This document shows, piece after piece, positions 2,918 through 7,158 of a DNA stretch of 64,000 bases; positions within the stretch are counted from its first letter, which is position 1, and each line of letters starts with the position of its first letter. Source of the DNA: Escherichia phage vB_EcoM_G9062; the sequence record NC_054920.1. One strand, 5' to 3'. The position numbers and the translations under genes are program-made. The notes below the pieces were generated by a model, which saw nothing but the letters and a program-made list of their open reading frames with translations, ran no database searches and was not told the origin of the DNA.

Positions 2918-3196
2918 TCAAAATGTAATTTCTAACCAATCACCATCACGCTGATCACTATTGACTTTAAAGCTGAATCCTTCTTTTCTCAGCCAATCAC
3001 CAATTTCTTCAGTAATCAATTTATCACGAGCAATACAATAATAACTAAAATGTGTTTTACCTTGTTCAGCTGCTTTATTAGCAAGTTCCGAAAAATCTTT
3101 AATAAAACACTCTAGCTTAAACTGTTTACTTTTAAGTGCTTTTTCGCGCAATTGATTAGCAAAAGATTCATTTTCATAAAGATCATACTGTTCCAT
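2918..3196 (-). CDS. Hypothetical protein (position of T4 24.2)
   Basis: 92-aa ORF with ATG start, synteny. Confidence 0.6.
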   Translation of the reverse strand: MEQYDLYENESFANQLREKALKSKQFKLECFIKDFSELANKAAEQGKTHFSYYCIARDKLITEEIGDWLRKEGFSFKVNSDQRDGDWLEITF

Positions 3197-3398
3197 TTTT
3201 CACCTTTTTATTGATATGTCTTTTTCTATAGACGACTTTTTCTCGAGTTTCAAATTTATTTTTAGCAGTCATAGCTCGAGCCCATAATACAGCCACTTCT
3301 TTTGCCTGTAAGTTTAATTCACGAGCAATTTCAATGAATGACTTTCCAGACTCATGAAGAGTAAACACCACAACCTCAGTTCTCATAATCAATCTCAT
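3183..3398 (-). CDS. Small putative helix-turn-helix protein (position of T4 24.3)
   Basis: 71-aa ORF; segment SFIEIARELNLQAKEVAVLWARA resembles an HTH. Confidence 0.5.
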   Translation of the reverse strand: MRLIMRTEVVVFTLHESGKSFIEIARELNLQAKEVAVLWARAMTAKNKFETREKVVYRKRHINKKVKNGTV

Positions 3399-3487: not shown

Positions 3488-4906
3488 TTATGGATAGGTA
3501 TAGATGATACCAGTTTCTAAAGCAGTTTTATGAATGATGTATCCATTACGCGATTCTTGAACATCAACTTCTGGATAGTCTTTCATCATCTTCTGAAGAG
3601 TGTAACGATGTAGGTAATATTTACTATCTGGGTCGTCAGTTTTCCAATCTTTACCTTCTTCGGTCATTTTTTGGATTTCATCCATAACCCACCAACCGCA
3701 CCAGATATAAGCTGAAGTACGATGTGGAAGAGGATGAACATAAGGTAGTTCACCTTCTGGTTCTGGAGCAACTTTATCAGTTACCTGAACTTGACCTTCT
3801 GCTGTAATAGTTTTGCTATCGTAATCAGTTGCAGTAACGACAGCAGTAACTTCAATAGTTTGACTTCCAACAGATGAGGTATCGACAGTATATACGTTAG
3901 TTGACCCTTCTACAGGAGAAGAATCTTTCTTCCATGAGTAAGTAATTTGTGCTTCTTCTGGAGCACCCGTAACATTAGCCGTAAATGTAGCCGAAGCATC
4001 TTGCTGAACATTAATAGAAGGAGGAGTCAATGTAACCTGTGGATTCATTGTCTTCTTATTAACTGTCAATGATACTTCATTAGAAGTAACTTCCTTTTCA
4101 TTGTAATTTTCAGCAGTTACTTGGGCTACGCATTTAATTCTTTTTACTCCACTTGTAGTTGGAGTATAGCTAAATGTAGAGTTAGTTTCTCCACCAACTT
4201 GTGAATCATCTACATACCACTGATACGTAGCAGACGCTCCATCAGGTTGAGAAGCTAAGGCAGCAGTAAATTGAACTGGGGTTCCGATTACTCCCGCTGG
4301 AGGACTATCAGGAGTTACTGCCAAAGTAGTTGTCTGCGTCTTTTTATTAACAGTTAGTGACACTTCATTGGAAGTAACTTCCTTTGTATCATAATCTGTC
4401 GCGGTTACTTGAGCTACGCACTTAATTGTTTTAACTCCGCTTGCGTCAGGAGTGTAATTGAATGTAGTGCTAGTTGCTTCGCCCACAGGAGAACCGTCAA
4501 CGTACCATTGATACGTAGCGTTTGCACCTGATGGCTGTGAAGCTAAGGCAGCGGTAAATTCAATTGGAGTTCCAATCACTCCAGCATCAGGGCTACCAGG
4601 AGTTACTGCCAAAGTAGTTGTTTGTGTCTTATTTTGAACTGTGATAGTTGTACTAATTTCAGCTGTTTCAGGTTCAGATTCTGCAACTTGATTGGTTGCA
4701 ACTACTTTAATAGTCTTTTGACCGGCAGGTCCTTTTAGTACATAACTAAAAGTTGCTGACGTTTCTTCCTGTGGAGCGTCGTCTACAGTCCAAGCATATG
4801 TAATAGTTCCGCCTCCAGTTTCACCACTGGGTGTAGCAGTAAACTGCTTAGTTTCATCAATAACCCCTGTCGGTGTTTTAGGAGTTATATCAACTGTAAA
4901 AGTCAT
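3488..4906 (-). CDS. hoc: Hoc outer capsid decoration protein, 472 aa with an extra Ig-like domain
   Basis: N- and C-terminal regions match T4 Hoc (MTFTVDITPKTPTGVIDETKQF...; ...YVHPLPHR..IWCGWWVMDEIQKMTEEGKDWK); tandem ~96-aa repeat. Confidence 0.9.
   Translation of the reverse strand: MTFTVDITPKTPTGVIDETKQFTATPSGETGGGTITYAWTVDDAPQEETSATFSYVLKGPAGQKTIKVVATNQVAESEPETAEISTTITVQNKTQTTTLAVTPGSPDAGVIGTPIEFTAALASQPSGANATYQWYVDGSPVGEATSTTFNYTPDASGVKTIKCVAQVTATDYDTKEVTSNEVSLTVNKKTQTTTLAVTPDSPPAGVIGTPVQFTAALASQPDGASATYQWYVDDSQVGGETNSTFSYTPTTSGVKRIKCVAQVTAENYNEKEVTSNEVSLTVNKKTMNPQVTLTPPSINVQQDASATFTANVTGAPEEAQITYSWKKDSSPVEGSTNVYTVDTSSVGSQTIEVTAVVTATDYDSKTITAEGQVQVTDKVAPEPEGELPYVHPLPHRTSAYIWCGWWVMDEIQKMTEEGKDWKTDDPDSKYYLHRYTLQKMMKDYPEVDVQESRNGYIIHKTALETGIIYTYP
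4048..4624 (-). repeat. Tandem in-frame duplication (two ~288-bp units) inside hoc encoding near-identical Ig-like domains
   Basis: Protein repeats TQTTTLAVTPGSPDAGVIGTPIEFTAALASQP... and TQTTTLAVTPDSPPAGVIGTPVQFTAALASQP... ending SNEVSLTVNKK. Confidence 0.8.
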
Positions 4907-4915
4907 AAGTTATCC

Positions 4916-5596
4916 TTATTTTAATGTTACGAAAGAAGAGTTGCGTGTTTCACGAATTAGAACTGATCCGTCACGGTTAATGTAATAAATTAAGCTAAAT
5001 AAAGTTTGGTGTGCTGACGCATGTTCAAAACTAGTTGGGTGAGATTTCCAATCAGGAGTTTCAGCAATCCATTGATAAATCCACCAAGGAACAGTACAGA
5101 ATCCTGGATTTTTTCCAATCAACTGAAGATTCGGGCTAAAGTTTTCCGGAAGAGTAAATACAGACGGCTTTTCAGATTCAATAATCTCAGCTACAGCCTG
5201 TTCAAATTTTTCTTCAACAAATGGAGTATCTTCAATCAAAACATCGGTATTTTCAGGAATTTTATCTGTTTCTACTACTTCAATTTTAATGTCAGATTTA
5301 ACCGGAGAATCAATCAAAAGTGCTGCTTCTGGATTGACTTCTTCATCGTCATATTTTAACCCCTCTGCAGCATCAGCAGCATCAATTAAGTCTTTAATAG
5401 ATAACCCATCAGTCTCCGGCATAGGTTCACTAGCGAGCTTCTGGAGAGCTTCTTCAATATCATTAACGATATTATCAAAAGATTTATTCTTTTTGACCTT
5501 TATACCAAACTGTTCAGCATATTCAGCTAATTTAGCTTTAGCTTCTTTATTATCATCAAGAGCCTTCAGCTCTGCAATATAATCTTTATCTATCAT
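4916..5596 (-). CDS. inh: Inhibitor of prohead protease (Inh)
   Basis: 226-aa acidic ORF at the T4 inh position between hoc and uvsW. Confidence 0.7.
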   Translation of the reverse strand: MIDKDYIAELKALDDNKEAKAKLAEYAEQFGIKVKKNKSFDNIVNDIEEALQKLASEPMPETDGLSIKDLIDAADAAEGLKYDDEEVNPEAALLIDSPVKSDIKIEVVETDKIPENTDVLIEDTPFVEEKFEQAVAEIIESEKPSVFTLPENFSPNLQLIGKNPGFCTVPWWIYQWIAETPDWKSHPTSFEHASAHQTLFSLIYYINRDGSVLIRETRNSSFVTLK

Positions 5597-5609
5597 AATA
5601 TTTCCTCAG

Positions 5610-5617
5610 TATAAATA
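5610..5617 (+). promoter_or_regulatory. Late promoter TATAAATA upstream of uvsW
   Basis: Exact TATAAATA about 30 nt upstream of uvsW ATG. Confidence 0.55.
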
Positions 5618-5646
5618 TAGATATATTTATTACATGGTATTTAGAC

Positions 5647-7158
5647 ATGACTGACATTAAAGTACATTTTTATGATTTTAGTCACGTGAGAATTGATTGC
5701 GAAGAAAGTACATTTCATGAACTCCGTGATTTCTTTAGCTTTGAAGCTGATGGGTATCGTTTTAATCCGAAGTACAAATATGGCCACTGGGATGGACGAA
5801 TTCGTCTTTTAGATTATAATCGCCTTCTTCCATTCGGTTTAGTCGGGCAAATTAAAAAGTTCTGCGATAACTTTGGCTATAAAGCCTGGATTGACCCACA
5901 GATTAACGAAAAAGAAGAATTATCAAGAAAAGATTTTGATGAATGGCTTTCTAAATTAGAAATCTATTCAGGAAATAAAAGAATTGAACCGCATTGGTAT
6001 CAAAAAGATGCAGTGTTCGAAGGATTAGTTAATCGTCGTAGAATTCTTAATCTTCCAACATCCGCTGGTAAATCGTTAATTCAAGCTTTGCTTGCGCGAT
6101 ATTATTTGGAAAATTATGAAGGTAAAATTCTTATCATTGTTCCAACAACTGCTCTAACAACTCAGATGGCTGATGACTTCGTTGACTATCGTTTATTCAG
6201 TCATGCAATGATAAAGAAAATTGGTGGCGGAGCATCAAAAGATGATAAATATAAAAATGATGCACCAGTCGTTGTTGGTACATGGCAAACTGTAGTAAAA
6301 CAACCGAAAGAATGGTTCTCACAGTTTGGAATGATGATGAATGATGAATGCCATCTTGCTACAGGAAAAAGTATTTCATCTATCATATCAGGTTTAAATA
6401 ACTGCATGTTCAAATTTGGTCTATCTGGTTCATTACGTGATGGCAAAGCCAATATCATGCAGTATGTTGGAATGTTTGGTGAAATATTTAAGCCAGTAAC
6501 GACTTCTAAGTTAATGGAAGATGGACAAGTAACTGAGCTAAAAATTAATAGTATTTTTCTTCGCTATCCCGATGAGTTCACTACTAAATTAAAGGGAAAA
6601 ACTTATCAAGAAGAAATAAAAATTATTACGGGGCTTAGTAAAAGAAATAAATGGATCGCTAAATTGGCTATTAAGCTTGCACAAAAAGATGAAAACGCTT
6701 TTGTCATGTTTAAACATGTATCACATGGTAAAGCTATTTTCGATTTAATTAAAAATGAATACGATAAAGTTTATTACGTATCAGGGGAAGTTGATACCGA
6801 AACCCGCAATATAATGAAAACCTTAGCTGAAAATGGTAAAGGAATAATTATAGTAGCTAGTTATGGTGTATTTTCTACTGGTATTTCAGTTAAAAATCTG
6901 CATCACGTTGTTTTAGCGCACGGTGTTAAATCAAAAATCATTGTATTACAAACAATCGGTCGTGTATTACGTAAGCATGGTTCTAAAACAATCGCAACAG
7001 TCTGGGACCTCATAGATGACTGTGGTGTCAAGCCAAAATCTGCTAATACTAAAAAGAAATATGTTCACTTGAACTATCTTTTAAAACACGGCATTGATCG
7101 TATTCAGCGCTACGCAGATGAAAAATTTAATTACGTAATGAAAACAGTTAATTTATAA
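5647..7158 (+). CDS. uvsW: UvsW DNA/RNA helicase (SF2)
   Basis: 503 aa; Walker A LPTSAGKS, DECH box (MMMNDECHLA); length as T4 UvsW. Confidence 0.93.
   Translation: MTDIKVHFYDFSHVRIDCEESTFHELRDFFSFEADGYRFNPKYKYGHWDGRIRLLDYNRLLPFGLVGQIKKFCDNFGYKAWIDPQINEKEELSRKDFDEWLSKLEIYSGNKRIEPHWYQKDAVFEGLVNRRRILNLPTSAGKSLIQALLARYYLENYEGKILIIVPTTALTTQMADDFVDYRLFSHAMIKKIGGGASKDDKYKNDAPVVVGTWQTVVKQPKEWFSQFGMMMNDECHLATGKSISSIISGLNNCMFKFGLSGSLRDGKANIMQYVGMFGEIFKPVTTSKLMEDGQVTELKINSIFLRYPDEFTTKLKGKTYQEEIKIITGLSKRNKWIAKLAIKLAQKDENAFVMFKHVSHGKAIFDLIKNEYDKVYYVSGEVDTETRNIMKTLAENGKGIIIVASYGVFSTGISVKNLHHVVLAHGVKSKIIVLQTIGRVLRKHGSKTIATVWDLIDDCGVKPKSANTKKKYVHLNYLLKHGIDRIQRYADEKFNYVMKTVNL

Follow-up and report, generated by a model that had tools for sequence, protein, structure and literature searches.

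Surface proteins with variable domain number

Hoc, the highly immunogenic outer capsid protein, is a non-essential fibre that decorates the capsids of T4-type phages. A comparable kind of variation is found in exposed, immunogenic bacterial surface proteins, such as those of the streptococcal alpha C/Rib type, in which recombination adds and removes whole-domain repeats among close relatives; these repeats are typically near-identical in DNA and vary at high frequency.

Hoc has been described as a conserved anchor that carries a variable string of Ig-like domains, with homologues containing from 1 to 10 of them (Fokine et al. 2023; PMC10385173), and the same article gives the T4 Hoc fibre as 180 Å, with three Ig domains and the anchor. 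The Hoc protein of phage PNJ-9 has 283 aa and two Ig domains, one domain being absent (PMC11853027). Together with the range of 1-10 domains, this means that a variable number of Ig domains in Hoc is already established. Those published variants compare distant phages, whereas here the number of units ranges from 1 to 4 in a single genus and varies even inside a species-level group, with junctions that can be traced. In the literature searched, the coverage of which is incomplete, no description of within-genus copy-number polymorphism of domain 2, or of collapse junctions, was found.

The hoc genes of Dhakavirus are similar in that they occur in forms of 282, 377 and 472 aa (the last in IME341), with steps of ~95 aa by which whole Ig domains are gained or lost. 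They differ in that IME341 duplicates domain 3 (54/94 aa between the copies) and the 282-aa form is without domain 2. This comparison made use of IMG/VR, with 21 loci only and few of them from Tequatrovirus. The Dhakavirus length changes are independent events in another genus.

The hoc gene and its locus

The window analysed here is a stretch of 64,000 nucleotides of DNA from Escherichia phage vB_EcoM_G9062 (NC_054920.1), one strand, and the gene under study and its neighbours are located in it as follows.

3488-4906, minus strand: hoc, an uninterrupted frame of 472 aa in the list of open reading frames
1904-2908: rnlB
2918-3196: 24.2
3183-3398: 24.3
4916-5596: inh
5647-7158: uvsW

The gene had been named hoc in the original prediction, and this identity was confirmed by a phmmer match to the T4 Hoc chain 5vf3_Z of the PDB (E=1.7e-222), other T4 Hoc chains also being matched, as well as by the C-terminal domain, of which 93/94 aa are identical to T4, and by a gene order that agrees with the T4 annotation, hoc being flanked by inh on one side and 24.3/24.2/rnlB on the other. 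In the alignment with 5vf3_Z, residues 93-376 of T4 Hoc are paired with residues 189-472 of the window protein, in which Pfam recognizes PKD, Ig_2, Ig_3 and I-set domains.

Over its full length, the gene is 99.9% identical in nucleotides to those of vB_EcoM_G4498, Yersinia phage PYps5T and Salmonella phage UAB_60, and at least 99% of its 1419 nt are shared with each of seven independent GenBank records. Judged from hoc and its flanks, which match the gee4498 group, the window phage is a Tequatrovirus of the gee4498 type. The labels given to hoc vary among records, including "PKD domain protein", "capsid and scaffold protein" and even "endonuclease", and in some related records the gene is annotated in two parts or with spans of 1418-1420 nt.

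Domain anatomy of the 472-aa protein

From the N-terminus to the C-terminus, the protein can be divided into five segments, the two repeat units being called u1 and u2.

4628-4906, minus strand: Ig-like domain 1 (D1), aa 1-93; 245/279 nt and 77/93 aa identical to T4 D1
4340-4627, minus strand: repeat unit u1, a "type A" domain-2 unit, aa 94-189; 225/288 nt identical to T4 domain 2 (D2)
4052-4339, minus strand: repeat unit u2, a "type B" domain-2 unit, aa 190-285; 260/288 nt identical to T4 D2
3773-4051, minus strand: Ig-like domain 3 (D3), aa 286-378; 247/279 nt and 82/93 aa identical to T4 D3
3488-3772, minus strand: C-terminal capsid-binding (anchor) domain, aa 379-472 and the stop codon, homologous to residues ~281-376 of T4 Hoc; 274/282 nt and 93/94 aa identical to T4

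The Pfam PKD match (aa 195-267) lies inside u2, and the Ig_3 and I-set matches (aa 289-373) lie inside D3. The closest described protein, T4 Hoc (PDB 5vf3, 8t1x; NP_049793), is encoded by the same gene at the same locus, consists likewise of an Ig-like string on a capsid anchor, and has orthologous D1-D3 domains (83-91% aa identity), but it has three Ig-like domains where the window protein has four, the additional one being a 79%-identical type A paralogue upstream of the T4-like type B unit. The difference between the 472 aa of the window protein and the 376 aa of T4 Hoc is 96 aa, that is, exactly one unit, and the proposal that the excess over T4 is a second, tandem Ig-like domain of 96 aa could be upheld, the domain being of the domain-2 type. 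In clustering, u1 falls among units that stand first in other multi-copy alleles. By similarity, u1 is the one that T4 lacks, and u2 is the closer counterpart of T4 domain 2. The T4 domain 2 is itself a mosaic, with a perfect match to u2 over unit nt 72-216 and a perfect match to u1 over 216-240.

An AF2 model made with 30 two-copy homologues contains four beta-sandwich domains with a pLDDT of ~90, while its anchor is poorly predicted, and the best Foldseek matches of this model in the PDB are generic strings of four Ig domains (Sidekick, Dscam, ICAM-5), with nothing specific to Hoc. The window Hoc is thus predicted to be a four-Ig fibre on a standard capsid anchor, with both units expected to fold. 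From its near-identical anchor domain, it would bind as a monomer at the centre of gp23 hexamers, with 155 copies per capsid.

A diverged tandem repeat

A repeat search found a gap-free tandem direct repeat with a period of 288 nt at 4050-4337 and 4338-4625, and TRF reported 4050-4630 with the same period, 2.0 copies and a score of 701, so that the location first proposed for the repeat, 4048-4624, is correct to within 2-3 nt. The two units follow each other in tandem and in frame, and each has exactly 96 codons. On self-alignment of the protein, u1 and u2 share 76/96 aa (79%), while the other pairs of Hoc Ig domains have 25-40 identities over 85-92 aligned positions (~40%), and the two units have 36-40 over 85-90 positions with the other Ig domains; the two units are therefore more similar to each other than to the other Ig domains, and the repeat is judged, by this comparison, to be a real duplication of the domain-2 module.

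The copies had been thought to be near-identical in protein and nucleotide sequence, a description that does not fit them. Only 220/288 nt (76%) are identical, and the 68 nucleotide differences, 41 of which are at third codon positions, include synonymous differences in 35 codons. The longest exact tract common to u1 and u2 is 25 nt.

Copy number across relatives

Arrays of domain-2 units proved to be common among relatives. In a protein search, 120 Hoc cluster representatives fell into three length classes, of ~376 aa with one unit (n=82), ~472 aa with two (n=30) and ~568 aa with three (n=8), two or more units thus being present in 38/120. A blastn search of GenBank phages with u2 gave 888 copies in 615 records, and among 60 evenly spaced records of these 615, 35 were one-copy, 24 two-copy and one four-copy. 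When the whole gene was used as the query, the span was 1419 nt in 20/50 sampled full-length matches and 1131 nt in 30/50. The largest protein, the 664-aa Hoc of slur14, has four units that are 74-84% identical in nucleotides, and in two three-copy genes of the 568-aa class the units are 75-81% identical. Neighbouring units more than 85% identical in aa were not found among the multi-copy alleles examined, and no fresh duplication was seen. The GenBank record of moskry already annotates repeat regions within hoc.

The domain-2 units cluster into at least three types, A, B and G, with consensus sequences that are 78-86% identical, and the architectures seen were A, B, G, AB (the window), AA, AG, BG, ABG, AAG and ABA. 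As the sole unit of one-copy alleles among the 120 representatives, type A occurs 36 times, type B 35 times and type G 10 times. Each of u1 and u2 is more similar to units of other phages, with aa identities of up to 100%, than to the other of the pair. Judged from these searches, the two-unit array is a common allele class and one state of a standing copy-number polymorphism of 1-4 units (376, 472, 568 and 664 aa) in Tequatrovirus hoc. In contrast to the bacterial repeats mentioned above, units of hoc have 74-84% identity and the tracts over which they agree exactly are short, so that copy-number change should occur at far lower rates than in those proteins.

Contraction on the background of the window allele

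Some one-copy Hoc proteins have flanking domains that are 99-100% identical to those of the window. In ten one-copy alleles, D3 and the C-terminal domain are identical to the window in 564/564 nt, and in APTC-EC-2A, a one-copy phage classified in the species Tequatrovirus gee4498, the flanks on both sides are identical over 1500/1500 positions. The single units were typed at the 68 positions where u1 and u2 differ, and seven of the ten alleles proved to have a chimeric unit, u1 in its 5' part and u2 in its 3' part, with three distinct junctions, which are given below together with the u1/u2 identity tracts at them.

Class I: u1 to unit nt 6, u2 from nt 32; APTC-EC-2A, ESCO58 and a metagenomic contig of SRR11808715; 25-nt identity tract at 4597-4621, partner 4309-4333, minus strand
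Class II: u1 to unit nt 108, u2 from nt 120; contigs of ERR11560411 and SRR22388795, from different samples; 11-nt identity tract at 4509-4519, partner 4221-4231, minus strand
Class III: u1 to unit nt 242, u2 from nt 258; a contig of ERR3229928, and D5505 in the same region with a patchy transition; 15-nt identity tract at 4371-4385, partner 4083-4097, minus strand
Nearly pure u1 unit: P0064, in two samples; no clear 3' footprint of u2
Mosaic u1/u2/u1 unit: P0019

All chimeric classes have u1 at the 5' end and u2 at the 3' end, which is the polarity that a deletion by unequal crossover in a u1-u2 array must give. One two-copy parent can yield all three classes, while the reverse direction needs several independent non-homologous joins, and the events are for this reason read as contractions. 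The claim that the direct repeat is prone to recombination is thus borne out by natural one-copy collapse products, with chimeric u1/u2 units, on the same allele background. The switch intervals are set by the spacing of the diagnostic sites, so their overlap with the identity tracts is expected even for crossovers that occur independently of position and does not prove a dependence on homology. Simple crossover within the array does not explain everything, as the units of P0064 and P0019 require either that one-copy alleles exchanged sequence with one another or that a microhomology deletion took place where the units meet. The metagenomic chimeras are unlikely to be mis-joins of de Bruijn assembly, as the common tracts are at most 25 nt long, and classes I and III are also supported by finished isolate genomes.

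The same polarity was looked for among the 82 one-copy units of the protein representatives, by asking whether their N-terminal part resembles first-position units and their C-terminal part last-position units. Their first third was first-position-like in 36/82, and in the two informative columns nearest the 3' end 93% resembled last-position units, the last third taken as a whole being mixed.

Age of the units and selection

Synonymous and non-synonymous divergence was estimated by the Nei-Gojobori method. Between u1 and u2, pS is 0.57, dS 1.09 and dN 0.137, while dS between the window and T4 is 0.21 for D1, 0.27 for u2 against D2, 0.23 for D3, 0.14 for the C-terminal anchor domain, 0.12 for inh and 0.19 for rnlB. 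The u1/u2 value is therefore 4-9 times those of hoc and its neighbours, which means that the units parted several-fold further back than this phage and T4 did. Even in the last 15 residues (45 nt), where the peptides of u1 and u2 are identical, there are six synonymous differences. The original prediction had called the duplication recent; a dS of 1.09 against 0.12-0.27, and the occurrence of the two-unit form in ~40% of sampled records, speak against this.

The dN/dS ratio between the units is ~0.13, which indicates that both have been kept functional under purifying selection. Between phages, the ratio is 0.4-0.5 in the Ig domains and ~0.03 in the anchor (compared with T4). Concerted evolution within arrays left no sign in these comparisons, a u1-u2 pair from one genome having no greater similarity than a u1 and a u2 taken from two genomes.

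Origin and dynamics of the array

The best explanation, to which a probability of about 0.8 is given, is that hoc carries an old, diverged array of two domain-2 units, the copy number of which shifts by unequal homologous recombination, with contractions as the recent events. Copy number would change when recombination takes place between the units, probably by the T4 homologous recombination machinery, and in the lineage of the window allele the recent events would be losses that left sister phages with a single chimeric unit, 5' u1 and 3' u2.

An unlikely, although not negligible, alternative is that illegitimate or unequal recombination between co-infecting phages placed diverged one-copy alleles of domain 2 in tandem, first two and then three or four. 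Types A, B and G each also occur alone, a nearly pure u1 allele is present on the exact background of the window, and the aa identity between unit types (78-86%) overlaps the range of D1 among phages (72-100%), all of which speaks for this alternative. However, the units are about twice as diverged in nucleotides (24%) as the D1 alleles compared (4-18%), and a collapse may also lie behind the "pure" one-copy types, given that a crossover in the boundary tract leaves a footprint of only 2 nt, as in APTC-EC-2A. A non-homologous join is also required for such stacking, at a boundary between units that offers only a few bases of microhomology.

A recent tandem duplication in this phage, giving two near-identical Ig units, is very improbable and was rejected on identity, dS and distribution. 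It would account for units that are in tandem, in frame, exactly 288 nt each and similar to a degree that no other two Ig domains of Hoc come near, but not for their 76% nt and 79% aa identity, for synonymous divergence several times that of orthologous genes between the window and T4, for the u1-u2 arrangement in ~40% of sampled Tequatrovirus records, or for the greater closeness of each unit to units in other phages. An artefact, by which the second unit was mis-assembled or two genes were read through, has nothing specific in its favour apart from the related records with divided or slightly different hoc spans, and was rejected as having a negligible probability, the frame being uninterrupted, seven independent records being near-identical, and the exact u1/u2 tracts being too short (at most 25 nt) for assemblers to confuse or collapse the units.

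A further role for the array may be considered, although it is doubtful. The domain-2 array could be a maintained cassette for length and antigen variation, in which diverged types (A, B, G and rarer ones) are shuffled into fibres of 3-6 Ig domains, tuning the reach of the capsid fibre, adhesion or antigenicity, and in which neighbouring units stay diverged at synonymous sites since near-identical ones are quickly deleted by recombination or misfold. This is allowed by the widely varying copy number and unit order, by the lack of neighbours above 85% aa identity, and by the dN/dS of 0.4-0.5 in the Ig domains against 0.03 in the anchor; if true, hoc would be a viral counterpart of the repeat-variable surface proteins of bacteria.

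Functional implications and significance

The reach of a four-Ig Hoc fibre would be about one Ig domain longer than that of the 180 Å fibre of T4, which could change the reach or the avidity with which mucin or cell surfaces are bound, and an effect of the extra unit on surface binding, as had been suggested, is plausible. Published mapping of the binding domains disagrees on domain 2. In PNJ-6 Hoc, the D1 residues E29 and G33 are reported to bind MUC2 and domain 2 did not bind (PMC11150434), while in PNJ-9 Hoc domain 2 did bind (PMC11853027). The translated D1 of the window carries both E29 and G33. Given that PNJ-6 domain 2 did not bind MUC2, the additional unit may serve purely as a spacer; it may also be a further weak binding site or an antigenic variant.

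Hoc is used as a display and vaccine platform of T4 and has been proposed to mediate the adherence of phages to mucus. GenBank already contains alleles 99.9% identical to that of the window. Hoc is a well-known protein, and the finding concerns its population genetics without pointing to any new type of system. Its practical bearing is on engineering, where repeat instability matters, on comparisons of adhesion among therapeutic phages and on annotation. For the T4-type coliphages, it means that ~40% of those sampled have four or more Ig domains in Hoc instead of the textbook three, and that the array can contract by recombination.

Larger and divergent domain-2 arrays

The largest domain-2 array observed in hoc is that of Escherichia phage slur14 (NC_028448.1), whose gene has the following position in the fetched locus.

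L030:1432-3426: slur14 hoc, encoding a Hoc of 664 aa

The slur14 protein carries four domain-2 units in tandem, giving six Ig domains in total, and this array, with units sharing 74-84% nucleotide identity pairwise, is larger than any other seen in the genus. Another Hoc of 472 aa, P0049 from the homologue search, has a second unit with just 55-56% identity to either window unit, and it represents a fourth unit type, far more divergent and inserted at the same position.

Dhakavirus hoc genes occur in three lengths, 472, 377 and 282 aa (IME341, L005:1501-2919, and loci L007 and L011), the shortest of which is devoid of domain 2. These length forms are parallel to the Tequatrovirus array and independent in origin: the duplicated module in Dhakavirus is domain 3, its copies agreeing at 54/94 aa.

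Irregular hoc records

In Shigella phage KNP5 (NC_055713.1, 109965-112036) the hoc match falls in two pieces across 2072 nt with a query coverage of only 76%, and could stem from an insertion in hoc or from a differing array. The two-copy hoc is sometimes annotated as two parts or as 1420 or 1418 nt long (FriedrichMiescher, MZ501066.1; vB_EcoM-UFV05), which suggests either a frameshifted gene, hoc being non-essential, or sequencing errors. A Tequatrovirus-type hoc unit with 82.6% identity is also found in PV654520.1 (142 kb), labelled Pseudomonas phage vB_PSGBLB0006, where the host label or the record itself may be wrong.

Constraint and exchange around hoc

Two Ig domains of Hoc were compared between the window and T4.

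4628-4906, minus strand: domain D1, dN/dS about 0.5
3773-4051, minus strand: domain D3, dN/dS about 0.4

In the same comparison the anchor domain, inh and rnlB show dN/dS values of 0.03-0.06, and the exposed Ig domains are evolving either with far looser constraint or with diversifying selection acting on them.

Two further features of the window flank hoc.

3183-3398, minus strand: 24.3-like ORF (DUF2774), 71 aa from the first in-frame start
5597-5646: gap between inh and uvsW, merely 50 nt

The 24.3 of T4 is annotated at 56 aa, and its homologues at the other loci examined are called at 61-71 aa, which points to start-codon or length variation directly downstream of hoc. Between inh and uvsW, the GIY-YIG homing endonuclease gene segE is found in T4 (L022:4058-4675), in ESCO58 (L025:144-761) and in contigs L029, L033 and L035. 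Phages with identical hoc 3' halves differ in whether they have segE, which argues that the hoc neighbourhood is a site of active exchange.
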